64,000 nucleotides of DNA from Candidatus Chloroheliaceae bacterium. Its GTDB lineage: Bacteria; Chloroflexota; Chloroflexia; Chloroheliales; Chloroheliaceae. Positions 12,071 to 59,819 of the stretch are shown piece after piece (within the stretch, counting starts at the first letter, position 1; the number at the start of each line of letters is the position of its first letter). The position numbers and the translations under genes are program-made. Location of the stretch: the NCBI GenBank assembly GCA_013390945.1, contig JACAUC010000003.1, positions 5,274 to 69,273 of the forward strand, written 5' to 3'. The notes beneath the pieces are model-generated. The model did no database searches. It saw only the letters and a list, made by a program, of their open reading frames with translations, and had not been told where the DNA came from.

Positions 12071-12436
12071 ACGGTCTCTAGTAGGATTTTGAGATAGAGC
12101 TAAGAGTGCCACGGGTCAAAATAGGTATTCTATTCTCATTTGGCAATCCGCGCCAAGCCTAGGGCATAGCGCGGATTGGCGTTGTACTAATAAAATATAC
12201 CTAAGAGGGTATATAATAAGTTTGTGTTCTAACCCGTTAGGCAACACAATAGTACTATAATTCTATCCGTAGTATCTATTGCAAGCCTCTTCCAAAAATG
12301 TTAGAATTTTGCTAAGGGTCGTGGGTACGGCTAGTTATTACTACGCCCAATCTTGTAACCTTAGATTAAAGATCAAACAGCGTGGTTAAACGTCAGTAGG
12401 AGCGGTAGCCGACATTGCAAATAAGGAAAGCTGAAC

Positions 12437-13744: not shown

Positions 13745-13807
13745 AATGGTCTCCATTTAATCCGCTCCGCGGGGCAGAACGAATAGTTTTACAAAGGTGG
13801 TGTTAAG

Positions 13808-15307: not shown

Positions 15308-15396
15308 AAAATTGACTAAATTGACTATGGAGGGTTAGCGTGGCGAGAATCAACGCTCTAAACGCTAACTAAGCTAGGGCCAGGAGCCAATTTCTT

Positions 15397-16380
15397 ATGC
15401 AACCAATAATACTTATCATAGTAGCGGTGTCTATTGTGGTAGTGCTGGTAGTCGTTCTTTTTATTACCCGCTCTCGTCGTCGCAAAAAAACCAATGTTAC
15501 CGACCGCCTGACCGATTATGCAGGCGGCAGCACTCGTGCCGGGGAAACTACCGCCGTCACTAAATCCTCTAACGCCCGCGAGGAGGTGGCAGCACGAATT
15601 GATAAAGCCTTGAAAGGTAAGGGCTTTGCCAACGAAATTTCGCGTAAATTGGCCCGGGCGGATTTGCGCTTGACCGTGAGTGAGTTTATTGGCCTTAAGG
15701 TGCTAAGTATGGGGGCGGCTTTTGCCATTGGCTCGTTTCTTGGGCGCGGCTTTGGTTCGTTCGCTTTGGTAGTGGGCTTGCTCTTAGGCATTCTTGGCCT
15801 TTATATTCCTGATATTATGGTTGGTCGAAAGGGTAATAAACGGATCAAGACTTTCAATAGTCAATTGGGCGATACTATTATGCTTTGTGCCAACTCGTTG
15901 CGCTCTGGTTATAGCCTTTTGCAATCGCTGGAATTGATTTCTAAAGAAGCTCCTGTGCCAATGTGCGATGAGTTCCAGCGCGTTATTCGCGAAGTTAGCC
16001 TTGGCTTAGCCACCCGCGAGGCACTCAGCAATATGTTACGCCGTGTACCCAGCGATGACCTTGATCTTCTGATTACCGCGATCAATATCCAAAGCGAAGT
16101 AGGTGGTAATCTGGCAACTATTCTGGATAAGATTGGGCATACTATCCGTGAGCGGGTTCGCATCAAAGGTGAAATTAAGGTGCTGACGGCCCAACAACAA
16201 TATGCGGGCTACATCATTTCGGGTCTGCCTCTCGCCCTTTGTGGGGTGCTAATGTTAATCAGTCCCCAATATGTAACCAAAATGTTTCCTTGGCCGTATA
16301 CCTGTATGCCGATCTGTGGTCTTATTTTGATTGCAAGTGGTTTCATGGCGATCATGAAAATTGTTCAAATTGATATTTAA
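15397..16380 (+). CDS. tadB: Tad pilus platform protein TadB (T2SS F family)
   Basis: 327 aa with an N-terminal TM, a cytoplasmic T2SSF domain and C-terminal TMs. It directly follows cpaF. Confidence 0.8.
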   Translation: MQPIILIIVAVSIVVVLVVVLFITRSRRRKKTNVTDRLTDYAGGSTRAGETTAVTKSSNAREEVAARIDKALKGKGFANEISRKLARADLRLTVSEFIGLKVLSMGAAFAIGSFLGRGFGSFALVVGLLLGILGLYIPDIMVGRKGNKRIKTFNSQLGDTIMLCANSLRSGYSLLQSLELISKEAPVPMCDEFQRVIREVSLGLATREALSNMLRRVPSDDLDLLITAINIQSEVGGNLATILDKIGHTIRERVRIKGEIKVLTAQQQYAGYIISGLPLALCGVLMLISPQYVTKMFPWPYTCMPICGLILIASGFMAIMKIVQIDI

Positions 16381-16435
16381 CCTCTTAGGAGTTAAATATC
16401 AATAAATTGTCTAGAATTTCTTTAGGAGGTCTTAT

Positions 16436-17371
16436 ATGTCTCAAAATGTAGTCTATATGATACTAGTAGCCCTGCTGGTAGTTGGGTTAGGTGCTGTGGG
16501 CTATGGCTTTATCAAGAACCGCCGTCGAATGAGACCCGACTTGCTTGAGAAACGCTTGGCCGAATATATAGATGCTCCGGTTTCCTTAGAAAAACTGGAA
16601 CTAGATCAGCCCTTCTCTGAGCGCGTGTTGAAGCCCATCTTCAACCGTTTTGCGGGGGCGGGCAATGCTATGACACCCGCCAAAACGGTTGAACGGCTTC
16701 GCCGCAATTTATCTATTGCGGGTAATCCCAATGGGTTGCAGCCTGCCGACTTCATGGGCTTGCGGATGGTAGCAATGTTGGTGCTGGGTGGTATTGTCCT
16801 CTTTTTGGCTTTTTTGGCAAAAATGTCTTTTGTCATGGTGATTATGGCCGGGGTGGTCTTTGCCCTAATTGGCTATATGCTACCGATTTATTGGCTGGAT
16901 GGCAAAATGAAGGCTCGGCGTAAACTAATCCAGCGAGCTTTACCAGATGCCATAGACCTCCTGACGATTAGCGTAGAAGCAGGTCTTGGTTTTGATCAGG
17001 CTCTCCAGCGCGTAACCGAGAAGTGGGAGACTGAACTGGGCAAAGAATTTAAACGGGTGCTAAGCGAAAGTCGCGTAGGTAAACCCAAACGCGAGGCTTT
17101 GCGCGAGATGTCTAATCGCTGTGATGTGCAGGATTTGAATATCTTTGTCGCTTCTATCATTCAAGCCGAACAATTGGGTGTTAGCATCGGTAAGGTTCTT
17201 AGCATACAGTCTGACCAAATGCGGGTACGCCGTCGCCAACTGGCTGAAGAGATGGCCCATAAAGCACCGATCAAGATGATCTTTCCAATGGTCTTCTTGA
17301 TCTTCCCTTCGGTCTATATCGTAATTCTTGGACCGGCTGTACCGACTATCGCACCGGCTCTTGGCTTCTAG
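16436..17371 (+). CDS. tadC: Tad pilus platform protein TadC (T2SS F family)
   Basis: 311 aa with the same architecture as TadB (PDAIDLLTISVEAGLGFDQAL). It is the second F-family paralogue, as is usual in tad loci. Confidence 0.8.
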   Translation: MSQNVVYMILVALLVVGLGAVGYGFIKNRRRMRPDLLEKRLAEYIDAPVSLEKLELDQPFSERVLKPIFNRFAGAGNAMTPAKTVERLRRNLSIAGNPNGLQPADFMGLRMVAMLVLGGIVLFLAFLAKMSFVMVIMAGVVFALIGYMLPIYWLDGKMKARRKLIQRALPDAIDLLTISVEAGLGFDQALQRVTEKWETELGKEFKRVLSESRVGKPKREALREMSNRCDVQDLNIFVASIIQAEQLGVSIGKVLSIQSDQMRVRRRQLAEEMAHKAPIKMIFPMVFLIFPSVYIVILGPAVPTIAPALGF

Positions 17372-21709: not shown

Positions 21710-23518
21710 TTACATCATAATTTGGGGTAGCACTTTTAAAACCATTTGAGGTGTTACCTCAGATAGGTTGTTACTACGTGTTTCACGCACCGCAGCATTG
21801 CGGAGCTTGTCCGAGGCCGATATACGCGCCACCCAAGGTACTTTTTCGATTAGCTGGTCAAAAACCGCTTTGGCATCGGCACTCCAAGGGAAACCGGAAA
21901 CCTCGTCTAAGTCTGCTGAAGGTTTGGCGGTTGGGGTAGTGGCTGCCGGAGGGCCACCCGCTTGGGAAGCTACCGACTCAGACCTTCCAGCCGCCGTACC
22001 GCGCCGTTCTCTGGGCAACACATCAAAGAGAACATCGAATAGAGCATTGGTAATAGTCTGCATCAGATAGACCGCTCCACGATAGCCCATATAGGGCGTA
22101 CCCACTGAGCGAGTGATAAGCGGAATCGGCAGCGAAGCAGGCAGGAATTTGGCGGGGATATTAGCTTCCGCGATGTAAATCCGCTCGTTCATACTCCCCA
22201 TTACAAAAGTAGGGCGTTCCTTTGCTAGGTGATTGCGTAGCATATAGTTATTGGTGTCGTTAGAACGTTGGCGACTGATAACGGTGCCAACTGCCAGACC
22301 TAGTTCTTCACCTAAAAATTGTTTTAAGCCCTGAGCATAGCTTTCATTGGCAATAATCGCCACTTTGCAGGTACTATAGAAATCTTGGGGAGCGCCTAGC
22401 CAAATGTCCCAGAGGGGTAGCAAGGTCTCCTTTTTCTCTTTCTTGACGAAAGCTTTGGCCTGCTCCTCTGTACCCATCAAACGGCCAAGCTCCAAAATAA
22501 ATTTAGTGGTTCCCTGCATACCAAACGGGGCAAAGAGGTAGGGTTTACCAAGTTCTTTCGCTAGTGTTTCGCCAAACTCGCGGTACATTACCACATTGAC
22601 CGCACTTTCGTCTAGGCGATCCATGTCAGCGTAAGCTGCCTCAAAGGGGAAGACAAAATGTAGCTCACCACCGGCACCCCGCACCAACCGCTTGAGTTCG
22701 TGTAGGTCGGCGTAACTGTTGAAACAGGAGTAGCTAGGGCCAATAATATTGATGGTAGTGGGTGATTTAACCGAAACTTCTTTTTGGCCTTCTGGCCGTT
22801 TCTTGCGCTCTTGATAGAGCCAAAGTAAAGCGGCATCTCGGCCCTGCCATTCGTCTTCTTCAAAGGCATGGCTGGTGAAGTAAAGTGCGTCGGGATGCTT
22901 GTGCTGAAGGCTCCTCACATGGTCGGCCCCAATCAATTCGCTTTCTTGGCTACTGACCACAATCAATTGCTTCTTGTGGCCTTTGGCGGCTTCACGGGCT
23001 TTAATGCGGCGTACTGCGTCTAATACTTTACGGGTAGTGCCATCAAGGGTTACTTCGATTTCGGTAATATTGCTGCTGGCAAGGTTTTCCAGTTCGGGTA
23101 ACGCATCGGTGTAGTTGATAGTAGCGGTGGCAGGCAGGCTATAACAGCCCACTGGGGCATCTACTATCATCTCTACGTCTTTGATACAGGTTAGGGCAAA
23201 AACCGCGCCCCAGTAGCCATTAGAGACGGGTGTATCGAGCGGGATATTGGGAGCTTTGAGACCTTCTTCGCCAAAGACATTCTCCGCCATTCGCCGAATG
23301 CGTTCGCGTTCGCTGGTTTCGCCATCTAGCTTTGCCACATTCCTTCTGCGGGTAAAACCATTTTGGATACTTGATTCAAAGCCGATTTCATCATCCAGTC
23401 CACTACTGGCTCTCTTTGATCTTTGATTACTTGGGGTTGCCAATTTTGGTGGTAGGCTTCCGAAATCCTCGTCGGCCAAAGGGTCAAAATCGGTGCTAAA
23501 CGTGTCACTTTTAGGCAT
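21710..23518 (-). CDS. bchZ: chlorophyllide a reductase subunit Z, with a ~105-aa N-terminal extension
   Basis: BchZ core: NGYWGAVFALTCIKDVEMIVDAPVGCYSLP. C-terminal PCP-reductase-type domain: FPWSADAKAVFDQLIEKVPWVARISASDKLRNAAV. It follows bchX-bchY. I place the start at the MPKSDTF ATG (23518). The track ORF runs to 23623 through the bchY stop. Confidence 0.85.
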   Translation of the reverse strand: MPKSDTFSTDFDPLADEDFGSLPPKLATPSNQRSKRASSGLDDEIGFESSIQNGFTRRRNVAKLDGETSERERIRRMAENVFGEEGLKAPNIPLDTPVSNGYWGAVFALTCIKDVEMIVDAPVGCYSLPATATINYTDALPELENLASSNITEIEVTLDGTTRKVLDAVRRIKAREAAKGHKKQLIVVSSQESELIGADHVRSLQHKHPDALYFTSHAFEEDEWQGRDAALLWLYQERKKRPEGQKEVSVKSPTTINIIGPSYSCFNSYADLHELKRLVRGAGGELHFVFPFEAAYADMDRLDESAVNVVMYREFGETLAKELGKPYLFAPFGMQGTTKFILELGRLMGTEEQAKAFVKKEKKETLLPLWDIWLGAPQDFYSTCKVAIIANESYAQGLKQFLGEELGLAVGTVISRQRSNDTNNYMLRNHLAKERPTFVMGSMNERIYIAEANIPAKFLPASLPIPLITRSVGTPYMGYRGAVYLMQTITNALFDVLFDVLPRERRGTAAGRSESVASQAGGPPAATTPTAKPSADLDEVSGFPWSADAKAVFDQLIEKVPWVARISASDKLRNAAVRETRSNNLSEVTPQMVLKVLPQIMM

Positions 23519-23619
23519 GAGTGAGAGTTGCCTTTCTTTTGTCGGGTGTTGGGTGTTAGGTGTCGGGTGTCGGGAATTATCCAGCACCTGATACCCGATA
23601 CCCCACCCCTGATACCTAA

Positions 23620-24966
23620 TCAAATTCCTACTTTTAAGGGTTCACGTACATGGTCATCGTCATCTACATCGGCAAAGAAGTCGCGCATATTCCGGTAAGT
23701 GTTGAGTTGGCTCAAAATTAGCTTCATTTGGTCTACCAGAGGACGCACACCTGCGGCCAGCAGAATTGGTCGGCCAGCTACAATATTAGTGTAGTAGACT
23801 GCTGGGATACCGCGCCGTTTAGCTACCGCTTCTATATTGCTGGAACCGACTACAAGGTCGGGAGCCATTTCGTCTAGGGCTTCAAGGTCATCTTCATGGC
23901 GCTTGCGGAAGAGTAGCGGAATATTCCGTCTCCGTAGCCAAGCTGCATCATCTTTAGTCCCCGGCCCCTCCTTAATGCTAGTGGAGACATAACAGACTTT
24001 GGCCCCAGCCTCGTGCATCAGACGGGCGAAGAGTAATTCGCTACCCTCATAACCCGCAATCATAATCTTGACTCCATCGAGCCGATTCTGGTCTAATTCA
24101 TCGGCTACCTTTTGAGCCTCCTCATCGGCGATAGCCTCGATTTCAGGGTTGGGCAATTGCATCAATAGTCCCAAGTTCTTTAACCAACTATAGGTGCCTT
24201 CTGCGCCTACCGGGGCACTGTAGAGTGGCTGCACACCAAATGAGTTTAATTCTTTGACAGTGCGGTCGTAGAAGGGGTGGAGCATTGCTGCCACTTTTGC
24301 TTTAGGCGCGTCATAGTAGGCCGAAATATCCTTATGGGGCAGGGCAGTGCGTAACCGCACTCCCATTCGAGAAACGGCGACACCTAATTGCACCGGGTCA
24401 GTTGGAAAGACTTCGCCAATGACCGCGAGACCATCTAGTTGTCCGTCGCTGGTCTTGCCCTCTGCCGCCATATTTTCGCCGACCCGCTTGATAATTTGGC
24501 TGATTGCTACATCTTTGGCCTCGGCGTGGGTGGGTACGCCATAAGCGGGAACTCGCATCGGTATAATTTCGGTGCGCCCTAACTTCCTAGGCAAAAGCTC
24601 AAGGTGGAGGCCGCTGGTCTCCGGGGTGCAGAGCGACATAACCGCAATCATCTGCGGGTTTTCGTGTTCCACCACCTCTTTGATTATGCCAATTACCTTA
24701 TCCGTCAGGTCGGTCTCCACCAGTTCGCGGGTGGTCAGTGAAGGTGAGACAATCGGTTTGTTGGAAGCATAGAAGTGGGAGACAAAATCTAGCCCGTAGA
24801 GGCAACCTACCGCTCCTACCAATACCGGCACCAAGCCCTCAATACGCATGGTTACTCGCAGCGAGCCAAAAGCTGGACACATGGTGGCACTGTGCATACT
24901 ACATTCGCTGCTCTCTTTAGGGGTTAGGTTAATGCTGCGCCCACTCTTTAATTCTTCGCTAGGCAT
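23620..24966 (-). CDS. bchY: chlorophyllide a reductase subunit Y
   Basis: MHSATMCPAFGSLRVTMRIEG ... VPAYGVPTHAEAKDV matches the BchY signature. The ATG at 24966 overlaps the bchX stop by 8 nt (ctATGcctag), consistent with translational coupling. Confidence 0.85.
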   Translation of the reverse strand: MPSEELKSGRSINLTPKESSECSMHSATMCPAFGSLRVTMRIEGLVPVLVGAVGCLYGLDFVSHFYASNKPIVSPSLTTRELVETDLTDKVIGIIKEVVEHENPQMIAVMSLCTPETSGLHLELLPRKLGRTEIIPMRVPAYGVPTHAEAKDVAISQIIKRVGENMAAEGKTSDGQLDGLAVIGEVFPTDPVQLGVAVSRMGVRLRTALPHKDISAYYDAPKAKVAAMLHPFYDRTVKELNSFGVQPLYSAPVGAEGTYSWLKNLGLLMQLPNPEIEAIADEEAQKVADELDQNRLDGVKIMIAGYEGSELLFARLMHEAGAKVCYVSTSIKEGPGTKDDAAWLRRRNIPLLFRKRHEDDLEALDEMAPDLVVGSSNIEAVAKRRGIPAVYYTNIVAGRPILLAAGVRPLVDQMKLILSQLNTYRNMRDFFADVDDDDHVREPLKVGI

Positions 24967-25837
24967 AGACCAGTTCCTCCGTGCTACGCCTGCTCCTAAG
25001 TTCATCCGGCGTGGCGCGGCGTAACCGTCCCCGCGTCTTCTGCTGGAACATGCGGTAAAATTCCTCAAAATCGAGTGGATTCGGGATGACGGATTCGGTT
25101 TGATCCATATTAGCAATAAACTTATCCATTGCCTCCCGCATTTCGGGAATTTCCATTACTTCAAAGGCATCTTTCATCATTACCGCCTCTGGTACAAATG
25201 GCATATTGGCTAGGATCGGAATACCGGTTTGGGCGGTGTAAGACTTAGCTACGCCCGTACCATCATCTTTATTGAGGATTAGGCCCAAGACGCGGCTTTC
25301 GCTTCCCTCCTCGGCGTAGTGCGCTACGGCCCGGCTAACATTGTTTGCCACGTAAAGCGATTGTTGGTCATTACCGGCCACAATCACAATCTCACGGGCG
25401 ATGGAACGGGCAAAGCTCATTCCAAAGCCACCACAAACCACGTCGCCTAAGAAGTCCAGCAGTACCACATCAAAGTCCCAGCTAAAGAGTCCCAGCTTTG
25501 AGAGGGTGTCAAAGCCGAGGACGATACCCTTACCGCCACAGCCCCGTCCGGTCTCCGGCCCGCCTAACTCCGCCGCGTAGACTCCGTTGCGTTCAAAGAT
25601 CACATCGCTGGCCGTTAGGTTTTCATCCTCACCATTTTCGTGGAATTCGCGCCAGACTTCTAGGATAGTAGGCAGTAAGACTCCCTTAAAGAGGGTTGCA
25701 GTCGAGTCGTGTTTGGGGTCACAACCAATTTGCAAGACACGTTTGCCTTGCTGAACTAGCCGGACACTTAGGCAACTGCTCAAGAAACTCTTGCCACTAC
25801 CACCCTTGCCGTAGATGGCAATTACTCTCTGGCCCAT
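24959..25837 (-). CDS. bchX: chlorophyllide a reductase iron protein
   Basis: IAIYGKGGSGKSF, GGPETGRGCGGKGI, VLLDFLGDVVCGGFG, NDQQSLYVANNV and NKDDGTG are BchX-type blocks, not BchL or NifH. The next two genes are BchY and BchZ. Confidence 0.9.
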   Translation of the reverse strand: MGQRVIAIYGKGGSGKSFLSSCLSVRLVQQGKRVLQIGCDPKHDSTATLFKGVLLPTILEVWREFHENGEDENLTASDVIFERNGVYAAELGGPETGRGCGGKGIVLGFDTLSKLGLFSWDFDVVLLDFLGDVVCGGFGMSFARSIAREIVIVAGNDQQSLYVANNVSRAVAHYAEEGSESRVLGLILNKDDGTGVAKSYTAQTGIPILANMPFVPEAVMMKDAFEVMEIPEMREAMDKFIANMDQTESVIPNPLDFEEFYRMFQQKTRGRLRRATPDELRSRRSTEELVYA

Positions 25838-49268: not shown

Positions 49269-51362
49269 TTATCGCAATCCCTCGGCGGCGGTGGTGACGC
49301 TGTGGGTAATAGTTCGGGCATCGGCGCGAGGTAGATAGATGTAGTGACCGCACAACTTACGGGCTAGACTAGCGGCCTCGCCTCGACTAAGGAAGCTAGT
49401 TTGGGTATCTAGCACCACCGTCGAAAGCCCTTCACTAGCCAGCAACGAAGCCAATTGCTCTACTTCTTGGGCCGCTTGCGACTTGCGCTCGTCTTTGGAA
49501 AGTGTGGCAGTTTCATCATTCTCCTGAAGCAAAACATTCCCGCGACCATCGGTAATCAAAATTACCATCGTCTTATTGATTCCTTGCCGCCTAGCACTTT
49601 CACTCATTCGCCAAGCGGTCATCATCGCGGAGGCCAGCGGCGTACCACCACCAGTAGGCAACACGTCCAATGACCGTTTGGCTAACTCTACGCTCTGGCT
49701 AGGAGGCAGCAGCACCTCGGCTTCGCGGCCTCGGAAAGAGATCAAGGCCACTTTATCGCGGTGAACATAAGCCTGCTGTAGCAATTGAGTTACGGCTCCT
49801 TTTGCTTCGCGCATTCGGTTTAAGGCCATCGAACCACTGGCATCCACCACAAAGATAAAGAGTACCCCAGCCTTATCTTTATAGCGTTTGAGCCTCAAGT
49901 CATCGGAACGCACCAGCACTTTAGCACCACTACTCGGCTTCCTTGCTCTGGTTTTAGGGGCAGGAACGGGTATTGGTTTAAACACCGCTTTCCGGCCTTT
50001 TTTACCTTCCAGTTTTCGAATATTTTGGAAGGGAGCCGCCGCTCGCAAAGTATCAATAATAGCAATCCGACCTCGGCCCGGTTTACCCGGCACACTCTGG
50101 ATGTGGCGACCGCGCTTCCAGTTATAGGTTTCGCCTCGGCTGCCCGACTTGGCTCGCTGTTGGCGGGCTTGAACCAACGACAGAATATCAGCTGGTAATT
50201 CGGTCTCTAGGGCTGCCATTATCAAATCATCCACTTGAGGTTCCTGCTCCTCCTGCTGTTCGGGAGGTTCCGGTTCCTCATTCTCTGGTGGAGGCGGTTC
50301 TTCTTCTTCGGGCTCTTCTGGTTCGGGCGGCTCTGGCTCTTCCGGTTCTGGTTCGGGTAAACGGGTAGCGCGTGGCAATAAGACTAAACGCACCGCCGCC
50401 TTCAGATCATCATCGTCTACCTCTATCCGTCCCTCCAAAGCGGCGGAGGCCAAAGCAACCCTAGTGGAGAAGAGATCCACCCGATTGCCCATTACTCCCA
50501 TTCGCAGGGCCGTCTCACTCAAGGCTCTCAACTGCTCGTCCGTGATTGTGACATGGGGCAAGACTTTGCGCCCTTCGACAATCAAGGTGCGTAGCATTTC
50601 GGTTTCCTCTTCGTACACGGCATTCAGGTTGACCGGATCACGATCCCAACTCAGGGCGCGAGTCATAATCTCGGCCCGATCATTTGGCCCTACAGGAGGA
50701 GTGCCAGGTACAATCAGCCCTACCCGGTCAGTCAGTCCATCCCGTACCTCGCCTTCGTCCGGGTTAAAAGTACCGATCAGGATAAACTCGGTGGGATAGT
50801 CGGCACTTAGTCCATCTCGTTCTAAGGCCAACCGACCTCGGCTCAAGGCATCCATCAGATAGTTACCCGGCCCATCATCCAAGAGGTTCATTTCATCGCA
50901 ATAAAGTATACCCCGATTGGCCTCGGCCAACAGACCGCGTTCGGCAATACGCTGTCCCGTTTGCAAAGTAGCTTCGAGGGCCAACCCACCTAACAACCGA
51001 TCTTCGGTTATATTAAGGGGCAGATTGACAAAAGGTGGGGGCGAATTAGTAATGGTAAACTTCTGGGCATGGGAACCTCTATAACTCTTCTTGCAATCGC
51101 TACACCACTTTTCGGGTTGGGCCGGATCACAATGTGATTGGCAACTAGCGATAGATTTGATAGAGGGTAATAGGGCATGAAAACTACGGGCCATAATAGT
51201 TTTAGCCGTACCAGGCCGGGCTGAGATAATCACCCCGCCCAATTTTGGGTCAATTGCCAGTAGCAAAAGCCCCCGTTTTGCCCAAGGGTGTCCTACCACC
51301 GCTGCAAAGGGATAATGCAGATAATCCGCTTGGTGCTTCTCCTGTTTATCTAAAGTTAACAT
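49269..51362 (-). CDS. bchD: magnesium chelatase subunit D
   Basis: N-terminal AAA+-like module (YPFAAVVGHPWAKRGLLLLAIDPKLGGVIISARPGTAKT). Acidic Pro/Glu linker (PEPEPEEPEPPEPEEPEEEEPPPPENEEPEPPEQQEEQEP). C-terminal vWA domain with MIDAS (FVVDASGSM). Confidence 0.9.
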   Translation of the reverse strand: MLTLDKQEKHQADYLHYPFAAVVGHPWAKRGLLLLAIDPKLGGVIISARPGTAKTIMARSFHALLPSIKSIASCQSHCDPAQPEKWCSDCKKSYRGSHAQKFTITNSPPPFVNLPLNITEDRLLGGLALEATLQTGQRIAERGLLAEANRGILYCDEMNLLDDGPGNYLMDALSRGRLALERDGLSADYPTEFILIGTFNPDEGEVRDGLTDRVGLIVPGTPPVGPNDRAEIMTRALSWDRDPVNLNAVYEEETEMLRTLIVEGRKVLPHVTITDEQLRALSETALRMGVMGNRVDLFSTRVALASAALEGRIEVDDDDLKAAVRLVLLPRATRLPEPEPEEPEPPEPEEPEEEEPPPPENEEPEPPEQQEEQEPQVDDLIMAALETELPADILSLVQARQQRAKSGSRGETYNWKRGRHIQSVPGKPGRGRIAIIDTLRAAAPFQNIRKLEGKKGRKAVFKPIPVPAPKTRARKPSSGAKVLVRSDDLRLKRYKDKAGVLFIFVVDASGSMALNRMREAKGAVTQLLQQAYVHRDKVALISFRGREAEVLLPPSQSVELAKRSLDVLPTGGGTPLASAMMTAWRMSESARRQGINKTMVILITDGRGNVLLQENDETATLSKDERKSQAAQEVEQLASLLASEGLSTVVLDTQTSFLSRGEAASLARKLCGHYIYLPRADARTITHSVTTAAEGLR

Positions 51363-51495: not shown

Positions 51496-53199
51496 ATGAA
51501 TCAACCTGAATCGGCAGGACCACCACCTGCTCCCAACCTTGAACAGACAACTCCGTCCTCCGCTTCACCCGATGAGCCTAAAACTTCAAAGGCAGCTAAG
51601 AATATGTCGTTGGGGCGCAAGACTGGTCGCGCACTCTTTTGGAATGTCTTCTTTCTACCCCTCAAAGCTGGTTTACAACTCTTCGTGACCCTCGTTATCG
51701 TCAAGACCTTCCCACTAGAAGCTTACGCAGTGTTGGCGGCAGTTACTGCTGTCCTTAGTACATTGGGACTCTATGTAGACTTAGGTATCGAACGGGCCTT
51801 GCCGCGTTTCGTAAGTGAGATTGAGCAGAAACAAGGCCGGGCGGCACTACGTCTCTTTATCACCCGTATTACCCTCATCAAACTGGCCGTGCTAACCGTC
51901 GTAGTCTTGATTATCACCGTAGCCGCCGAACCAATTATCAGTTGGATGGGTAGTTGGGGCGATCAGGGTCACATTTACTTAGCTCTAATTAGCATGTTAT
52001 TGGTATTGGGCGCACTTTATGACATTTGTACCCAAATCCTCTATAGCTTTTTCAAGCAAAAAGTCACTAACCTGCTTGACATTGTAGTAACTGTACTCAA
52101 TCCTCTGCTCACGCTGTTACTGGTTGGCCCTTTGGGGCTACGGGTCTATGGCGTAGTGCTGGCCCTACTTATCACCACCGTTATTAGTGTCGGAATTGCT
52201 GGCTGGCAAGCTTGGCTGGCTTCAAAAGACCTTGAAGTCAAATTAAAAACTCCCAAACCTAACCCAGCCCCTTCCGCGACTGATACCGGAGTGATCCCCC
52301 GTGAAAGCCTGCTCAAGCGCTTCATTCGGTATGCGGCCCTGATGTACTTTTTCAACATCTCAGCTTGGTTCTACGATGCCTCTTTCGCGATGTTGGTCTT
52401 CACCTTCTACCGGGAGATTGTCACAGTGGCCTTGATCCGCTTGATTTACAATTTCATCAAGACCCTATTAAAGAACTTGTTGTCCCCCTTTGTAGGAGTA
52501 CAAACACCTCTCTTTTCCTCCATCCATGCCGAGGGTCACACCCCTAAATTGCACACTGCTTATGCTTCAATCAGCAAACTTCAAATTTTTATTCTAGTGC
52601 CAAGTAGTATTGGTGCGATCATCTTAGCCCGTAACATCCTTGAACTTCTCTTTGCCCGTAAGAGTGCCGATGCGGTGCTACCTGTTACGCTGCTGGAACC
52701 GGCTACTTGGGCCACCATCCTCACTATCATCTTTACCTTTGCCGAAGCCCTTATCAGTCTGCCAATGGTGATACTGATGGTCTACGAACGTTATCGGGCG
52801 GTAATTTTGGCCCGTACCTTACCACTGTTAGCAGGGCCACTGCTGATACTAACTGCCGCCCTACATTGGAATGTGGTGGTTGCCGTAACGATAATGGGTT
52901 TGATGGCAGTTAGTTCACGAGTGATGGCCATGGTCTCATTACAACGGACGCTGGGCCTCTATTACCCGGTTAAATTCCTTCTCAAAGTCTCGAAAGCGGC
53001 CCTAGCCTTTGGTATCCCTTTGCAAATCCTCGTTCTCTTCTTGCCGATCAACTGGCCTATAACCCTAGGCATAGCAGGTACGGGTGTTATAATCTTCTAT
53101 GCGGTTTTTAAAGGGTTGGGCGGTTTTGACCTAGAGGACAAAAACCGCCTACAAACCCTTAAAATGCCTTTACGCAAATATATAATTAAGTGGTTTTAG
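51496..53199 (+). CDS. MOP-superfamily (Wzx/MurJ-like) polysaccharide/lipid flippase
   Basis: ~14 hydrophobic helices with a polysaccharide-biosynthesis-protein-like layout. I prefer the MNQPES ATG at 51496 over the track start at 51421. The 3' end overlaps the bchI 3' end by 4 nt (convergent). Confidence 0.55.
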   Translation: MNQPESAGPPPAPNLEQTTPSSASPDEPKTSKAAKNMSLGRKTGRALFWNVFFLPLKAGLQLFVTLVIVKTFPLEAYAVLAAVTAVLSTLGLYVDLGIERALPRFVSEIEQKQGRAALRLFITRITLIKLAVLTVVVLIITVAAEPIISWMGSWGDQGHIYLALISMLLVLGALYDICTQILYSFFKQKVTNLLDIVVTVLNPLLTLLLVGPLGLRVYGVVLALLITTVISVGIAGWQAWLASKDLEVKLKTPKPNPAPSATDTGVIPRESLLKRFIRYAALMYFFNISAWFYDASFAMLVFTFYREIVTVALIRLIYNFIKTLLKNLLSPFVGVQTPLFSSIHAEGHTPKLHTAYASISKLQIFILVPSSIGAIILARNILELLFARKSADAVLPVTLLEPATWATILTIIFTFAEALISLPMVILMVYERYRAVILARTLPLLAGPLLILTAALHWNVVVAVTIMGLMAVSSRVMAMVSLQRTLGLYYPVKFLLKVSKAALAFGIPLQILVLFLPINWPITLGIAGTGVIIFYAVFKGLGGFDLEDKNRLQTLKMPLRKYIIKWF

Positions 53200-54368
53200 G
53201 CTTTAACGCCTAACACTTTTTCTGCCGCTTGCTCAATCTTGATGCCACTATCGGTATTGTCGAGGGGGTCTTTTCGCAGGCGGTGGCGTAGCGAAAGACC
53301 TACTACATTCCGTACATCCTCCAGCGTGACAATCTTCTTGTGGCTAAGAGCCGCTTGAGCGGTAGCAGCGCGAGCAATGGTCAACTCGCCCCGGTGTCCG
53401 TCCACGCTCAAGGCTAGGCATAATTCGGCAATTTTTAGCAAGACTTCATGGGGCAACGCTACTTGGGGTAGAAGTTTCTGAGCATTTTTGATTTGGCGGC
53501 GCAATTTTTCCTGAGCAGGCTCCCACTCTGCCATAAAATCGGCTGGATTTAGCTCAAAACTCTGGCGACGTTTGACAATCTCCACTCGCTGTTCCAGATC
53601 AATAATGGTAATAATGCGAGAGTGTAGACCAAAGCGATCCAACAATTGCGGACGCAAATCGCCTTCCTCAGGATTGCCACTACCCACCAACACGAACCGG
53701 GCTGGGTGGCGCACACTAATACCTTCGCGTTCTACCGTATTTACCCCACCAGCCGCCACGTCCAGCAATACGTCCACAAGGTGATCTTCTAAGAGGTTTA
53801 CCTCATCAATATAGAGGAACCCGCGATTGGAACGGGCCAACAGTCCTGGCTCAAAAGCTTTGATACCTTGATTTAGGGCTTTTTCAATATCAATTGTGCC
53901 GCAAACCCGGTCTTCGGTAGCACCTAGCGGTAAGTCTACCACCGGAACAGGCGCATAATGTCCCGTGAGTTTTTGCCCTTTCGACAGCTTATCCCGGCAA
54001 TCGCGGCAGAGTGCGCCACGCCGCTCGGTATCGGGATCGCAGCCATAGAAGCAGTTTGCTACTACTTTAATGCGTGGCAACAAATCGGCGAGGGCGCGAA
54101 CAATGGTGCTTTTGCCAGTTCCGCGGTGGCCCATAATCATTACCCCCCCAATTTTGGGGTCAATCACATTGAGCAAAAGCGACCGCTTCATCTCTTCCTG
54201 TCCCACGATGGCAGCAAAGGGATAGACATAGTGGGCTTCTACCTCATCTTTGCCCTTTGCCGTAGTTTTTGCTTTCCCTTTGACAGTAGGCGTTTCTTCG
54301 CCATTACCATTTTCCAGCAGCTCGTCCGGTTCGTCTACAGGTATGGTATTTTCTATTAGCTCGGTCAT
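53196..54368 (-). CDS. bchI: magnesium chelatase ATPase subunit I
   Basis: YPFAAIVGQEEMKRSLLLNVIDPKIGGVMIMGHRGTGKST (Walker A), FLYIDEVNLLEDHLVDVLLDVAA (Walker B), SGNPEEGDLRPQLLDRFGL. It has a ~40-aa N-terminal extension. Confidence 0.9.
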   Translation of the reverse strand: MTELIENTIPVDEPDELLENGNGEETPTVKGKAKTTAKGKDEVEAHYVYPFAAIVGQEEMKRSLLLNVIDPKIGGVMIMGHRGTGKSTIVRALADLLPRIKVVANCFYGCDPDTERRGALCRDCRDKLSKGQKLTGHYAPVPVVDLPLGATEDRVCGTIDIEKALNQGIKAFEPGLLARSNRGFLYIDEVNLLEDHLVDVLLDVAAGGVNTVEREGISVRHPARFVLVGSGNPEEGDLRPQLLDRFGLHSRIITIIDLEQRVEIVKRRQSFELNPADFMAEWEPAQEKLRRQIKNAQKLLPQVALPHEVLLKIAELCLALSVDGHRGELTIARAATAQAALSHKKIVTLEDVRNVVGLSLRHRLRKDPLDNTDSGIKIEQAAEKVLGVKA

Positions 54369-54432: not shown

Positions 54433-55491
54433 TTAGCTTTTTAGCGCATTTTCAAGTCCAAACTCTAATGACTCTGATTTACCATTACTAGAATCATTGG
54501 TAATCATTGTGGTCAAGTTAATAGAAGCGCGGGTTAGGTGTAACTTGAGCAAAGTTGCCACCTGAGCAGGTAATTCAGCCAAGATCAGATGACCACAATG
54601 GGGCATAACAAAATAAGTACAATTAGGCAGTAAGGTGGCAAGGCGTTTACTGCTTTTCTGACTGATTACTTTGTCGTGCGAACCAGCCACTAGGAGTGTG
54701 GGCATTTTGAGTGAGACTACCCATTGAGGTAACTGATCCAATACCTCCCTTGACATAGTAGATTTAGCCATATAAAAGGCGGCATTGGGCGAAGTATCTC
54801 GCAGGCTCAAGAGTCCATACTCAATATCACGACGTGAGGCCGGATTTTTTAGCAGGGTGAGGCGGGCATAGTAGTAGACGGCCCGCCAAGATTTGAGTCG
54901 TCGCAACACTTTGCTAAAAACTGTAGCAAGAGCTTTGGCCCCAAACTGCTCAAAAGCGGCACTATACTTGAAAAGACCATAGTTGAAAAAGGCCACACTA
55001 GCCACCGATTCAGGATAGCGAGCGGCGTAAGCCGTAGCAATTAGCGAACCGACCGAGAAAGAGAGGAGATGGAATTTTTCCAACTGGAGCAATTCGGCTA
55101 GTTTACGGAGGTCGTCAACTAGCGTGGCGATTTCGTAATCCGCTACGATAGGGTCATCGGTGAAGCCATGTCCGCGTAAATCATAATTGATCGTGCGAAA
55201 GCCTGCGATATTGAGAATGTCTACGATGCTGTGCCACCAAAAAGAGGAACAATCCCAGCCATGCAATAGGATCACCGACTCACCCTTGGGTGGGCCTTCA
55301 TCTAGGTAGAAATGGTTGACTCCGTTTATTTTTACGAAGTGGGCCTGCTCCAGTTTGGAAAGGTCTTCCTGCAGGTTGGCTCGACGCTGTGTATTGGTGT
55401 GGGGTAAGGCAATTTCAGCCTGGGCGAGTGTGGCATATTCCAACGCTTTCGCTGTAGGCACCCCTTCACAACCTACCTTCTGCTTCATCAT
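54433..55491 (-). CDS. alpha/beta-fold hydrolase, BchO-like by position
   Basis: HGWDCSSFWW oxyanion region, nucleophile elbow SFSVGS, C-terminal HCGH histidine. It lies directly upstream of bchI. Purple-bacterial bchI-bchD-bchO clusters encode a similar hydrolase, so the BchO label is a context inference. Confidence 0.55.
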   Translation of the reverse strand: MMKQKVGCEGVPTAKALEYATLAQAEIALPHTNTQRRANLQEDLSKLEQAHFVKINGVNHFYLDEGPPKGESVILLHGWDCSSFWWHSIVDILNIAGFRTINYDLRGHGFTDDPIVADYEIATLVDDLRKLAELLQLEKFHLLSFSVGSLIATAYAARYPESVASVAFFNYGLFKYSAAFEQFGAKALATVFSKVLRRLKSWRAVYYYARLTLLKNPASRRDIEYGLLSLRDTSPNAAFYMAKSTMSREVLDQLPQWVVSLKMPTLLVAGSHDKVISQKSSKRLATLLPNCTYFVMPHCGHLILAELPAQVATLLKLHLTRASINLTTMITNDSSNGKSESLEFGLENALKS

Positions 55492-55993: not shown

Positions 55994-56671
55994 GTGGCTT
56001 TTCAAAGATTTCGGTTCAACTCAAGACGAAACAAAATTGCCACCAGTGTGCTGGGGCTACCCGAAACCCAGGCAGTTTACTTTAGTGTCTGGCTCGCTGG
56101 CATATTAATTGGTGTCGTATTAATGATTATCCTTGTAGGTTTAATCGGCAATGGTGTGGATACACCACGTACGCAACAAACCGCTAGGGAAAATCAGGGG
56201 GACATCGTAGCACCAATCCAACTAGTCTACCGAGATGCTCAGGGAAATCTAGCTACTGCACAGCAAGCTGGTTTCTCTAATGGCGTGGTAGCCCAAGTAG
56301 ATAGTTGGGAACGAGCAGCCGCGCAGGGTGATAAAGTAGCTCAAGCCGAGCTACAAGCAGCACGTGGTCGCGGACAAGCTAACTTTAATCGGATCTGTAT
56401 TGGTTGTCATTACGGCGCACCCCAAGCATCTTCCAGTGGCCCTTATCTGGGGAACCTTTACCAGACTAAGACCGTCTTCAATGGTAAGCCGCTCAATGAT
56501 GCTAATGTAGTTACTTTTATCTTATTAGGCAGTCAGTCTCACAACTTGGTGGCGGATGGTCAGCATGTGCTGGTCAATGGGAGCGGTGGTTTTATGCCGA
56601 TGCCCTCCGGAATTGCTACACCGCAGCAAGCTGTAGACATAATGCTTTATTTGAAACAACAAACGAGTTAA
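55994..56671 (+). CDS. membrane-anchored monoheme c-type cytochrome (candidate reaction-centre electron donor)
   Basis: 225 aa with a GTG start after a gagaggagg RBS. One TM (VWLAGILIGVVLMIILVGLIG). The CXXCH heme motif CIGCH is at 56396-56410. A distal Met candidate lies in GGFMPMPSG. It ends 30 nt upstream of the pscA-like gene. Confidence 0.75.
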   Translation: MAFQRFRFNSRRNKIATSVLGLPETQAVYFSVWLAGILIGVVLMIILVGLIGNGVDTPRTQQTARENQGDIVAPIQLVYRDAQGNLATAQQAGFSNGVVAQVDSWERAAAQGDKVAQAELQAARGRGQANFNRICIGCHYGAPQASSSGPYLGNLYQTKTVFNGKPLNDANVVTFILLGSQSHNLVADGQHVLVNGSGGFMPMPSGIATPQQAVDIMLYLKQQTS

Positions 56672-56701
56672 TAAACCTTAGGCTAGTAAGGAGCACAAGC
56701 G

Positions 56702-58489
56702 ATGAGCATTACCCTGCAACCGGGCGCCCGTCCGCTCATCAATCGGCCAGCACTAAACAAAGCGGCTGAGCTGCATGTGCCAGGATACCGCTGGTATCAG
56801 CTTTTTGCCTTTCCGCGTACCGAAGATCAGATTTTTGGCGGCCACTTGATTGTGGCCGGTGCAATCGGTTCGATGGTAGCGTTCAACATTGGCAGTGGGC
56901 TTACCTTCCCTGGTAACTATTTTTTCCTTACCATCGAGCCACAGCTTTACAATCTAGGTATTGATACCAAAGAAAAGCTCTTGACCTATACCCTGATCCA
57001 TATCATCTCTAGTCTGGGCTTAATCTTCTTTGGTTGGTGGCACTATCGCAATAAAGTGTTACAGGCTGCCGCCTCAAGCTACGCGAAGGCGTGGGGTGGG
57101 CATTTGGTCTATATCGCTTGGTGGTGCTTCGCCTGGGTGCTGTGGAGTACGTTGGTAATGCAGCGCGGCCCTAAGTTTGGTACAGATGGATGGATATGGG
57201 CCGCAGCAGGAGCGCAAGATTTAACCTTTAATGGTGACGCCCTACTGCTTTGTCTGTCGGTAATATTGCTGGTAACCGGGTTGGTAACTTGGCGCAAGCC
57301 GCCGACCTTTAATCGGCATTTGGAAGATCCAAAAGCGCAACTTCACGTCAATCTGGTGGTCTTTGGCTGGACAGGCATGTTGTTCAGTGCCTTTGCCTGG
57401 TTCACCTTCCCGCGAGGCTCAAACGCCGCCGCAGGCCAGTGGAGCGATGTGGCTCTTAATCTCTACGTGTGGAACCACATTAACTGCAGCTTCCTCTACA
57501 TCATCGGCGGTGTCTTTCACGGCGCTCAGTACCTCTGGGACGTGCGCGAGGATGACTCCAAGAACCCTTGGGTAGTAAGTCGCTGGGTACGCTGGTTCGA
57601 TAGTCAAGACCGTCAGGCCAGTATCACGAGTACAATCTTCCTCTTGGCCTTCTTTACCGGCTTTAGTGCTTGGTCTGTAATGGGTATCAACTCAATGGTG
57701 GATTTTAAGCTCTTTCCCCAAGAGTGGTACATTGACGGTCTGCGGCCTTACGTAATGGAATGGTTGACCCCCGGCCTGCTGCACGTCTGGCCTGGATATA
57801 AAACGAGTGTCAGTGATTGGGTCTTTATACATGCTCTTGTAGCTGGTTTCTTCTTTGTAGGGATACCAGTCACTCGGTCAGTATTTTTCACCAGACGTAG
57901 TCCCTTGTTTGATGCAAAAGGGATCACTAAACGTAGTTTCGATTATCCTTGTCTAGGGCCGGCCTATGGCGGTACCTGCGGTTACAGTATTCAAGATCAA
58001 ATCTGGTTAGCAATGCTATGGGGAATTAAACCGCTCTCGGTTATCGTTTGGTACATGATGGGTGTCTACTTTGGTAGTTTGCAGTTCGCAATTAACCCGA
58101 AAGACCCATCAGGTGATACTAGCTTCCCTGGAAGACCCGGAGCTTTGTTCTTCATCTTCCAAGCTACCAGTAAAATCTGGAATGATGGTCACTTGACGAT
58201 GATACTCTATCTTGGACACCTTGTTTGGCTATTAAGCTTTATGTTCTGGTTTGAGTATCGGGGTAGCCGTCTCGAAGGAGCGTATATCCTCAGTCAGGCA
58301 CTTAAACGTTGGTTCGGTATTAATATGGTGCCTGAACGCTTTGTTATGACGCTGGTAGGTAGCCGTATGTTAGGTACCTTCCTCTACTATGGTGGAGTCT
58401 TCATGTGTGTCTTTACCTATCTCTCGGTAGGTTTCGCTTGGAGGCCAAACATCCTAGCGCCAGTAGTCGCACCATTAGGCGGTCCATAG
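56702..58489 (+). CDS. pscA: type I photosynthetic reaction-centre core protein (PscA/PshA/PsaA-PsaB family), divergent and compact
   Basis: 595 aa and polytopic. The FX [4Fe-4S] loop FDYPCLGPAYGGTC has Cys417 at 57950-57952 and Cys426 at 57977-57979. Compare the family consensus FPC.GP.RGGTC. The penultimate helix ILYLGHLVWLLSFMFWFEYRGSRLEG (His506 at 58217-58219) aligns with PsaA [26 protein letters not shown], which carries the special-pair ligand. RBS is taaggagca. Confidence 0.85.
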   Translation: MSITLQPGARPLINRPALNKAAELHVPGYRWYQLFAFPRTEDQIFGGHLIVAGAIGSMVAFNIGSGLTFPGNYFFLTIEPQLYNLGIDTKEKLLTYTLIHIISSLGLIFFGWWHYRNKVLQAAASSYAKAWGGHLVYIAWWCFAWVLWSTLVMQRGPKFGTDGWIWAAAGAQDLTFNGDALLLCLSVILLVTGLVTWRKPPTFNRHLEDPKAQLHVNLVVFGWTGMLFSAFAWFTFPRGSNAAAGQWSDVALNLYVWNHINCSFLYIIGGVFHGAQYLWDVREDDSKNPWVVSRWVRWFDSQDRQASITSTIFLLAFFTGFSAWSVMGINSMVDFKLFPQEWYIDGLRPYVMEWLTPGLLHVWPGYKTSVSDWVFIHALVAGFFFVGIPVTRSVFFTRRSPLFDAKGITKRSFDYPCLGPAYGGTCGYSIQDQIWLAMLWGIKPLSVIVWYMMGVYFGSLQFAINPKDPSGDTSFPGRPGALFFIFQATSKIWNDGHLTMILYLGHLVWLLSFMFWFEYRGSRLEGAYILSQALKRWFGINMVPERFVMTLVGSRMLGTFLYYGGVFMCVFTYLSVGFAWRPNILAPVVAPLGGP

Positions 58490-58697: not shown

Positions 58698-59819
58698 ATG
58701 CCGCAGTTCCTAGAAGGAAGGGCAGAACAGGGGAGAGGTCAGGCCGATTGGCGCTGCCGATATGATGATGATTGGTGGTTAAATACCCAAGTTCGCGCAC
58801 TTCTTGGTTGCCCTACCGCTGTCCCCAAATTGCCACTCGAAACGGAAGTTGAATTCCGCGCTCGCCCTAAAGGTGACGATATTTCAGAGTGTACCGTCAA
58901 GGTCGAATCATTGGTGGAAGGGGTCAAAAAAACCCTTGAAATTAGTGCTTTAATTACAGACCTAGATGAACATACTCGCGAAAGTAAGGGTTTTGGTCGT
59001 ATTATTGTAGGTGACTTTATTCACCCCTTTGAGTGGCGCGGTACGGTCAAGCGCGAGACTTACGTACCTGATAGCAGTCTTAATCTGACTCGCTCACAAA
59101 CTTACATCGGTGGTCGGCTCTTACACGACGTGACCGCTCGTATCGCGTTGGATACCCCGATTGCCCGTGAAGCTTGGGAGCAGGTTCGCACTGTAACTGC
59201 TCGCAATAGCGATGTTTTGACCAAAACGGTCTTCTTTGGCCCACTCTGGCGCACGGCTGACCTAACCGGGCAGCTTTACGAGGATATTCAGGTGAAGACC
59301 CTCAGTGCCAGTGAAGGGAAAACCTTAAGTCGCGTCAGCTTTATCACCAGCGGTACAGGCCAAGTAGACAGTATTACTTACTGGACACGTCTCTTCCCCA
59401 TTTCGTTGCTCAAAGGACGTGAGGCTTTTGTCAAAGGTAAGTATGTAACCGATGCCAGTAGTATTAGGGTTTCGGTAGATGCCGAACTACCCGGTTTAGT
59501 GGAACGCAAAGATGGACTTCTAAAGGTAATTGACCACCCGCAGATACCCATCCTGCACCATGGCCTCGTTGGTCAGCCCATTCCGCTAGATCTGGATTTC
59601 AAGCTCAACCTAACGACACCCAATGGTTGGCGCATTAAAGAAGCCGATCCAAGTTATCGCAAGAAGATTGGTAAGAATGATTACCTATTCCAAGGCGGTG
59701 CCTATCTCAGTTTCGTCAATACTATCGCGCGTGGCAACTTAGCCCCGTTCGATGTCTGGTTTGATCGCGATGAGGCCGGTGCCTCGCTTAGCCCCAATGC
59801 AGCTATCGCAGTGAAGTAA
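58698..59819 (+). CDS. fmoA: Fenna-Matthews-Olson bacteriochlorophyll a protein
   Basis: 373 aa. Blocks align to Chlorobaculum FmoA: VGDFIHPFEWRG (cf VGDFSHTFSFEG), GGRLLHDVTARIALD (cf QGRQFHDILMKVPLD), VDSITYWTRLFP (cf VDSISRWAELFP), IDHPQIPILHHGLVG (cf LNHPLIPLVHHGMVG), QGGAYLSFV (cf SGGAYARWV). All five His ligands are conserved. RBS is taaggagg. Confidence 0.9.
   Translation: MPQFLEGRAEQGRGQADWRCRYDDDWWLNTQVRALLGCPTAVPKLPLETEVEFRARPKGDDISECTVKVESLVEGVKKTLEISALITDLDEHTRESKGFGRIIVGDFIHPFEWRGTVKRETYVPDSSLNLTRSQTYIGGRLLHDVTARIALDTPIAREAWEQVRTVTARNSDVLTKTVFFGPLWRTADLTGQLYEDIQVKTLSASEGKTLSRVSFITSGTGQVDSITYWTRLFPISLLKGREAFVKGKYVTDASSIRVSVDAELPGLVERKDGLLKVIDHPQIPILHHGLVGQPIPLDLDFKLNLTTPNGWRIKEADPSYRKKIGKNDYLFQGGAYLSFVNTIARGNLAPFDVWFDRDEAGASLSPNAAIAVK

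Follow-up and report, generated by a model that had tools for sequence, protein, structure and literature searches.

A PscA-like type I reaction centre gene of a Chloroheliales phototroph, with an in-frame TGA in place of the second FX cysteine codon in most of its relatives

With reference to the literature, it can be observed that the Chloroflexota strains L227-S17 and L227-5C carry a PscA-like protein with an FX iron-sulfur cluster site and 11 predicted helices, which represents a fifth clade of type I reaction centres (RCs) (Tsuji et al. 2024, PMC10972752), and that the ligands of this protein, designated 'CfxRC1', have been compared one by one with those of the solved RCs (Gisriel et al. 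2021, PMC8452559). The published phylogeny groups CfxRC1 with the RCs of green-sulfur bacteria (GsbRC) and Chloracidobacterium (CabRC), with the heliobacterial RC (HbRC) as their sister (PMC8452559). As the fifth known type I RC group, the clade links chlorosome-bearing Chloroflexota to Fe-S photochemistry and bears on the spread of the two RC types among bacteria. Here, we examined the RC gene in a stretch of 64,000 nucleotides (nt), called the window below, from a Candidatus Chloroheliaceae bacterium (GenBank assembly GCA_013390945.1, contig JACAUC010000003.1, positions 5,274 to 69,273). The open reading frame (ORF) at 56702-58489 very probably encodes the PscA-like core subunit of a homodimeric type I (Fe-S type) RC of the CfxRC1 clade, from a Chloroheliales (Chloroflexota) phototroph. 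This finding is correct, yet already published for the clade (PMC10972752, PMC8452559), and for the window gene it is a confirmation and not a discovery; the new element is a TGA/Cys polymorphism at an FX ligand.

56702..58489, forward strand: pscA-like gene of the type I RC core protein (ATG start, 595 amino acids (aa), TAG stop)
56688..56693, forward strand: Shine-Dalgarno sequence AAGGAG, 8 nt before the ATG of the RC gene, as read from the sequence

The N-terminus of the protein cannot extend further, because in-frame TAG and TAA stops lie directly 5' of the ATG. Pfam family PF00223, whose gathering score is 23.3, matched residues 371-559 at 32.7 bits, while no matching model was found in NCBIfam. 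In a phmmer search of the PDB, the best solved relative was Chlorobaculum PscA (6m32_A, E 6.5e-82, 279 bits), followed by Chloracidobacterium PscA (7vzr_A, E 1.7e-52), heliobacterial PshA (5v8k_A, E 1.7e-30, 109 bits), and PsaA/PsaB of photosystem I (PSI) in various entries, with E about 1e-5. The GenBank proteins NWJ94303.1 and MEI6044865.1, from metagenome-assembled genomes (MAGs) named 'Chloroflexota bacterium', are identical to ours, and the same protein occurs on nine public contigs whose neighbouring genes are likewise unchanged. Identity to members of the Chloroheliales CfxRC1 clade ranged from 78 to 91%, and was 78% to WP_341468883.1, its counterpart in 'Ca. Chlorohelix allophototropha'. 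Together with this high identity, the window protein has the accessory-pigment Lys and the A0 Met of CfxRC1, and it shares with the Ca. Chlorohelix L227-S17 / L227-5C protein the same FX site, eleven helices and the association with fmoA and chlorosome genes. Among the database entries, one of 607 aa (P0002, ENA) has an aberrant C-terminus after residue ~575, probably due to a frameshift or assembly error, and three of 619 aa (P0016, P0019 and P0021) carry a 23-aa N-terminal extension that comes from an upstream start call.

The cofactor ligands were mapped on an alignment of the window protein and clade members with green-sulfur PscA, Chloracidobacterium-type PscA and three PshA sequences. 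The mapping is anchored, because the PshA row of this alignment reproduces the published numbering of C432, C441, H537 and S545, and the phmmer alignment that of CabRC H784 and of PscA W601, K553 and R638. The sites of interest are the following.

57938..57979, forward strand: FX-binding loop FDYPCLGPAYGGTC, residues 413-426, of the FPCxGPxxGGTC type, between helices 8 and 9
57950-57952, forward strand: C417, predicted FX ligand, codon TGT; aligns with PshA C432 and Chlorobaculum PscA C527
57977-57979, forward strand: C426, predicted FX ligand, codon TGC; aligns with PshA C441 and Chlorobaculum PscA C536
58028..58030, forward strand: K443, predicted axial ligand of the accessory (bacterio)chlorophyll, (B)Chl; aligns with PscA Lys553 (LWGIK) and PshA Gln458; invariant in the clade
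58217..58219, forward strand: H506 in helix 10 (GHLVW starts at 505), predicted to ligate the special pair axially; its aligned counterparts are PshA H537 and CabRC H784; invariant
58241..58243, forward strand: M514 (H506+8), predicted PSI-type A0 ligand; the equivalents are PshA S545, PscA A629 and Met in PsaA/PsaB; invariant in the clade
58268..58270, forward strand: R523 (H506+17), equivalent of PscA Arg638; PSI-type sequences (P0052) have the quinone-stacking Trp here

A first inspection, made from the letters of the DNA without database searches (the sequence-only reading), had named both cysteines in FDYPCLGPAYGGTC as FX ligands and the histidine of GHLVW as that of the special pair. Both assignments are supported, since the cysteines align exactly with PshA C432/C441 and H506 with the structurally assigned PshA H537 and CabRC H784. 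The same reading had left the A0 ligand and the quinone pocket to be scored by alignment, and this returned Met at A0, as in PSI, and Arg instead of the Trp at A1. The predicted A0 ligand is thus PSI-like, and a PSI-type A1 quinone pocket is predicted to be absent, because R523 occupies the position of the PSI Trp; its predicted role is that of a lipid-phosphate counter-ion. All 13 histidines of the protein, K443, M514 and R523 are invariant across 19 unique clade sequences, and H48, H100, H114, H259 and H273 are so across all four homodimeric RC clades. Nine histidines of the window protein align with histidines of green-sulfur PscA, with H48, H100, H114, H134, H206, H259 and H273 of the antenna being among the residues aligned in this way, in agreement with the published inference that the CfxRC1 antenna is pigment-poor and GsbRC-like (PMC8452559).

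Though the window keeps two FX cysteines, as the sequence-only reading stated, this makes it exceptional among its close relatives, most of which carry TGA at the second position. Many of the database homologues have a length of only 424-432 aa, and their last residues are exactly ...FDYPC[LIV]GPAYGGT. On the contigs that encode them, TGA stands opposite the C426 codon of the window, and the frame runs on through 168-170 conserved residues to the normal C-terminus. The first FX codon was TGT at all loci compared, while for the second, 15 unique sequences had TGA and five had TGC or TGT; by species, TGA was noticed in eight of the ten representatives in the Genome Taxonomy Database (GTDB). The TGA forms are distributed over all three sublineages, including the 90%-identity cluster that contains Ca. 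Chlorohelix (P0013; L035/L036). Their loci (L numbers, with the position in each contig excerpt) are as follows.

TGA-type sequences, aligned with 57977-57979 of the window: L007-L019, L022-L024, L028 and L035
Position of the TGA: L007:7273-7275; L009, L014-L018 and L022/L023:7273; L012:2661; L019:4957; L024:4273; L028:2426; L035:4279

Directly after this TGA, the TGA types harbor an invariant hairpin, GACCA-NNNN-UGGUU, at nt 19-32 counted from the U of UGA, with a loop of GGUC, GAUU, GUUC or AGUU that always has a G within its first two apical positions. The selenocysteine insertion sequence (SECIS) of E. coli fdhF, taken from the K-12 genome, has the same core, CAGGUCUG, with its GGUC loop at nt 22-25 compared with nt 24-27 in the TGA types, and likewise directly follows an in-frame UGA aligned with Cys. 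Synonymous diversity (pS) in the TGA types falls to its gene-wide minimum around the TGA, at 0.41-0.47 against a mean of 0.70 with a standard deviation of 0.10, whereas the Cys-type genes show no such dip at the hairpin site. Codon choice in the hairpin goes against what these genes use elsewhere: gene-wide, in both types, GAC makes up 39% of the Asp codons, TTR 29% of the Leu codons and GCA 16% of the Ala codons, and all of these are fixed in the hairpin of the TGA types. The energy of the consensus hairpin was -4.3 to -5.4 kcal/mol in the TGA types, compared with +0.3 to -2.8 kcal/mol in the Cys types. The literature on bacterial selenoprotein genes names a Cys/selenocysteine (Sec) pair, a SECIS immediately downstream and a conserved apical G as the criteria for such genes.

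These data suggest that Sec, inserted at UGA by an in-gene SECIS, is likely to serve as the second ligand of FX in most phototrophs of the Chloroheliales, so that FX would be held by two Cys and two Sec, and that Cys426 of the window, like the Cys of Ca. Chlorohelix, probably replaced Sec secondarily, the SECIS at 57988-58015 having decayed. Several points weaken the case for Sec. The stem of the hairpin, a putative SelB site, is short, with a 5-bp upper stem, and no bulged U is evident in comparison with fdhF; the hairpin is conserved without compensatory covariation; and Sec in the relatives is deduced from RC loci. The searches for the Sec machinery carry little information: ARAGORN detected no tRNA-Sec in the window or 18 loci, which represent RC-flanking regions only; tblastn with E. 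coli SelA and SelB found no match in ~0.4 Mb of RC-flanking sequence, which is uninformative for whole genomes; and Pfam scans of the other ORFs of the window disclosed no sel genes, which is uninformative for the rest of the genome. Rfam returned no match around the TGA, and it is not known to hold a general bacterial SECIS family.

The first alternative is that the TGA of the relatives is recoded otherwise, by near-cognate read-through as Trp or Cys or by a lineage-specific reassignment of TGA. The shortness of the hairpin, its lack of covariation and the restriction of the evidence to RC loci would all be in keeping with it, yet we consider it unlikely. Reassignment of TGA throughout the genome was rejected, because these RC genes themselves end with TGA in 10 of 14 TGA-type sequences, and a neighbouring gene does too. 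The position is moreover exactly Cys in all the homologues, which is the classic Cys/Sec pair, and the SECIS features described above (the loop G, the loop position close to that of fdhF and the octamer CAGGUCUG common to both) are present.

The second alternative, to which we give slightly less weight still, is that the TGA is a true stop, so that the relatives possess either a split or truncated RC, of 424 aa plus ~157 aa re-initiated at the next AUG, or pseudogenes, and the window the intact form. Gene callers do give separate ORFs of 424-432 aa and 143-158 aa (P0003, P0004, P0005, P0013 and their clusters), with an AUG 12 codons past the TGA. Even so, the ratio of nonsynonymous to synonymous substitution rates (dN/dS) downstream of the TGA is 0.051, as low as the 0.046 upstream of it, and the TGA has been kept across lineages with near-saturated synonymous sites (pS ~0.7). 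The 11 codons from the TGA to the next AUG retain the peptide GYSIQDQxWLA through synonymous changes, including a switch of Ser between the AGC and TCC codon families, which can be explained only by selection on the protein. A split protein would also lose an FX ligand together with S429, D432 and Q433, which are invariant in all RC clades. The split calls are an annotation artefact, as a result of which surveys and annotations under-report or mis-size these RCs; P0005, which represents the entire clade at 50% identity, is itself one of these fragments and has an empty precomputed Pfam field.

Returning to Sec as the preferred explanation, the window itself shows what a Cys form derived from a Sec gene might look like.

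57988..58015, forward strand: decayed SECIS-like hairpin, nt 12-39 from the T of TGC, with the upper stem-loop GAUCA-AAUC-UGGUU at 57995-58008

In this hairpin a U replaces a stem C, giving U.G for C-G, and the loop, AAUC, has no G, with an energy of +0.3 kcal/mol in the consensus structure; compared with the fdhF SECIS, the element is decayed and the codon is TGC. All five Cys types, though from separate lineages, share the codons GAU-CAA-AUC, which remove the loop G and one G-C pair; selection to disrupt the SelB site, or another cause, may account for this. A protein tree, bootstrapped and rooted with an outgroup, paired the window with L025, both of them Cys types, at 80% support. The pair falls within a subclade (84%) and a clade (100%) in which every other member has TGA. 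Because this pair is nested among TGA types, Cys426 of the window is most simply seen as a secondary Sec-to-Cys replacement, whatever the ancestral state of the order as a whole, and 57988-58015 then appears to be a remnant SECIS. Such remnants are known from other Cys forms derived from selenoproteins. Two other explanations of the Sec/Cys switch were tried and rejected: a recombination tract, as sliding-window identities placed each sequence closest to its own clade throughout, and selection of Cys forms by a selenium-free enrichment medium, as the medium contained selenite-tungstate solution.

A Sec-containing RC received no mention in Tsuji et al. and its supplements, in targeted full-text searches, or in a prokaryotic selenoproteome review of May 2026, and the searchable papers on this clade are likewise silent on the TGA that most uncultured relatives have at the second FX position. 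If true, such an RC would contain the first selenoprotein known from photosynthetic RCs, as far as the searchable literature shows, and a selenolate would ligate the low-potential Fe-S cluster at the centre of a photosystem; the window and the cultured strain would then provide natural Sec/Cys pairs for comparing the potential, spin state and oxygen sensitivity of FX.

Concerning the number of RC genes, the sequence-only reading noted a single copy without an adjacent paralogue and took this to indicate a homodimer, and the wider searches support this. In tblastn against the whole window the protein matched only itself, the next match having E = 2.7. HMMER over 1.84 billion representatives of 50%-identity clusters revealed one cluster for the clade, followed by green-sulfur bacterial (GSB) PscA at 37% identity, Chloracidobacterium PscA and PshA; at E<1e-10 it disclosed only the own clade, GSB, Chloracidobacterium and heliobacterial sequences, with no intermediate paralogue cluster. 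A word-indexed search of 5.8 billion proteins yielded five 90%-identity clusters, all of them orthologues from different contigs and species, and a contig scan of ten GTDB species genomes with two N-terminal peptide patterns found one RC locus in each. Likewise, a PF00223 search of the closed L227-S17 genome and the L227-5C MAG gave a single pscA-like gene (Tsuji et al., PMC10972752), and the literature already takes the homodimer for granted.

The divergent paralogue that the sequence-only reading had named as an argument for a heterodimer was thus looked for and not found in these searches, and a homodimer is therefore favoured as a supported inference. A heterodimeric RC, in which a divergent core paralogue elsewhere in the genome would be paired with this protein like PsaA with PsaB, draws on the fact that the window covers 64 kb of the genome and that a scan with two N-terminal patterns would miss a distant paralogue. 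In view of the missing intermediate cluster between the clade and GSB PscA, the orthology of all five 90% clusters, the one locus per species genome and the single gene of L227-S17 and L227-5C, it is very improbable. PSI itself, though similar to the window protein in its fold family PF00223, FX motif, special-pair His and A0 Met, is a heterodimer of paralogues with a phylloquinone-stacking Trp at His+17. The window lacks both the paralogue pair and the A1 Trp, and possesses, as Arg523, the Arg at the PscA Arg638 position found in all homodimeric RCs.

The protein is also consistent with the six-plus-five helix arrangement of type I RCs.

56825..57595, forward strand: antenna domain, transmembrane (TM) helices 1-6, residues ~42-69, 91-113, 133-154, 171-201, 214-237 and 249-280
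57614..58441, forward strand: electron-transfer domain, TM helices 7-11, residues ~305-333, 368-398, 430-465, 496-519 and 556-580

Eleven helices, the number expected by the sequence-only reading, were obtained from hydropathy, homology and the DSSP assignments of two low-confidence AlphaFold models. Ten segments passed the hydropathy threshold, and helix 6 (249-280, with the invariant H259 and H273) was assigned by homology and DSSP. Two details of that reading need correction. After the FX loop there are not two long hydrophobic segments but three TM helices (~430-465, 496-519 and 556-580), along with two shorter helices; and the N-terminal antenna part, described as without obvious similarity, is aligned by phmmer with Chlorobaculum PscA, residues 29-118 with 59-168 (E 7e-07) and residues 123-277 with 198-345 (E 0.008).

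A few observations weigh against the assignment of the window ORF to a homodimeric PscA-like RC. This particular protein is known here from its gene, alignments and predicted models. Both AlphaFold2 models, built on alignments of 9 and 11 rows, are poor (mean pLDDT, the predicted local distance difference test, 40.8 and 47.3), and only their secondary structure was used; with the better one, Foldseek matched RC cores and CP43/CP47 at TM-scores no higher than 0.37, at best a supportive result. The two-pattern N-terminal scan could miss a very divergent paralogue, a gap that HMMER covers only for the genomes included. Finally, a PscB-like FA/FB protein is not encoded in the window.

The size of the protein was compared with heliobacterial PshA in the sequence-only reading, and this holds for length (595 aa against 608 aa) but not for kinship, as PscA is much closer (E 6.5e-82 against 1.7e-30). 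Against green-sulfur PscA, 170 residues are missing, all in termini and inter-helix loops: 50 at the N-terminus, 28 in the TM2-3 loop, 46 in the TM5-6 loop, 17 at the C-terminus, and smaller loop segments. The small size of the protein is therefore due to short termini and short loops between the helices, with no helix lost, and its PshA-like length is convergence and not kinship. That it should be a heliobacterial-type minimal RC and not a PscA-type one is hardly credible, since against the similar length and total indels relative to PshA of only ~50 aa in each direction stand the 279 bits to PscA compared with 109 bits to PshA, an accessory ligand that is Lys as in PscA and not Gln as in PshA, an fmoA gene immediately downstream, the FMO protein being a green-sulfur and Chloracidobacterium feature, and the published grouping of CfxRC1 with GsbRC and CabRC (PMC8452559).

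Comparatively, Chlorobaculum tepidum PscA (GsbRC, 6M32) has ~33-37% identity to the window protein, with the FX loop, the GHLVW His, the LWGIK Lys, RGSRLEG (Arg638), nine antenna His and the FMO partner in common. The window protein is 136-155 aa shorter and lacks the 50-aa N-terminal extension, the 28-aa TM2-3 and 46-aa TM5-6 insertions and the 17-aa C-terminal tail of that PscA, and has Met514 at the A0 position where PscA has Ala629. Heliomicrobium modesticaldum PshA (HbRC, 5V8K; 608 aa, homodimeric) has the same FX Cys pair and special-pair His, whereas identity drops to 26-28%, Gln458 and Ser545 stand in place of Lys443 and Met514, and few additional antenna ligands are shared.

The genes on either side of the RC gene are relevant to how it might be supplied with excitation and electrons.

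55994..56671, forward strand: membrane-anchored monohaem cytochrome c, 225 aa, haem motif CIGCH (PF00034, E 4e-4), ending 30 nt before the RC gene
58698..59819, forward strand: FmoA, the Fenna-Matthews-Olson (FMO) bacteriochlorophyll a protein, 373 aa (PF02327, E 6.6e-49; FMO in the PDB, E ~1e-48), starting 208 nt downstream of the RC gene

The upstream cytochrome carries a membrane helix at its N-terminal end and a monohaem cytochrome c domain at its C-terminal end, belongs to a family that is confined to this group and has no named relative, and has no significant solved relative (best E 0.38) in the PDB, which includes PscC and PscX/PscY chains. For FmoA of the window, no matching NCBIfam model was found. 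The order cytochrome c, RC gene, fmoA is kept in every locus of the window's clade. In the Chlorohelix lineage, by comparison, contigs L032 and L033 (5001-6760 in both) have a 185-aa orthologue of the cytochrome directly beside fmoA, in a pair that adjoins the same alpha/beta hydrolase, while the RC gene has a separate locus; either its insertion into the pair or its excision from it must therefore have taken place. Tsuji et al. (PMC10972752) reported that no clear electron donor of the type I RC was identifiable; the upstream cytochrome c is a concrete and, judging from its gene, probable candidate for this donor.

The present data show the gene with its motifs, its homology and topology, its copy number and its synteny, and the following picture of pigments, homodimer assembly and electron flow builds on them. 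On this arrangement, the RC gene would be co-transcribed, or at least clustered, with the cytochrome c gene and fmoA. Two identical 595-aa subunits, each with six antenna and five electron-transfer helices, would form a C2-symmetric core, and excitation would pass from chlorosomes via FmoA to this core. An electron would then move from the (B)Chl special pair P at H506 through the accessory pigment at K443 and the A0 chlorophyll at M514 to FX, an inter-subunit [4Fe-4S] cluster held in the window's RC by two C417 and two C426, and from FX to a PscB-like FA/FB protein that would be encoded elsewhere, while P+ would be re-reduced by the upstream cytochrome c.

Other genes of the window were also recorded. 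Pigment genes on the reverse strand, at 49269-51362, 53196-54368, 54433-55491 and 21710-25837, comprise bchD-like and bchI-like Mg-chelatase genes, a BchO-like gene and a NifH/NifD/NifK-like trio, which is either bchLNB or bchXYZ. The BchO-like alpha/beta hydrolase is conserved beside the RC operon. A Tad/Flp-type pilus cluster occupies 10868-17371 on the forward strand, with an RcpC/CpaB-like protein, a response-regulator-ParA-like ATPase, a T2SSE ATPase and two T2SSF proteins.

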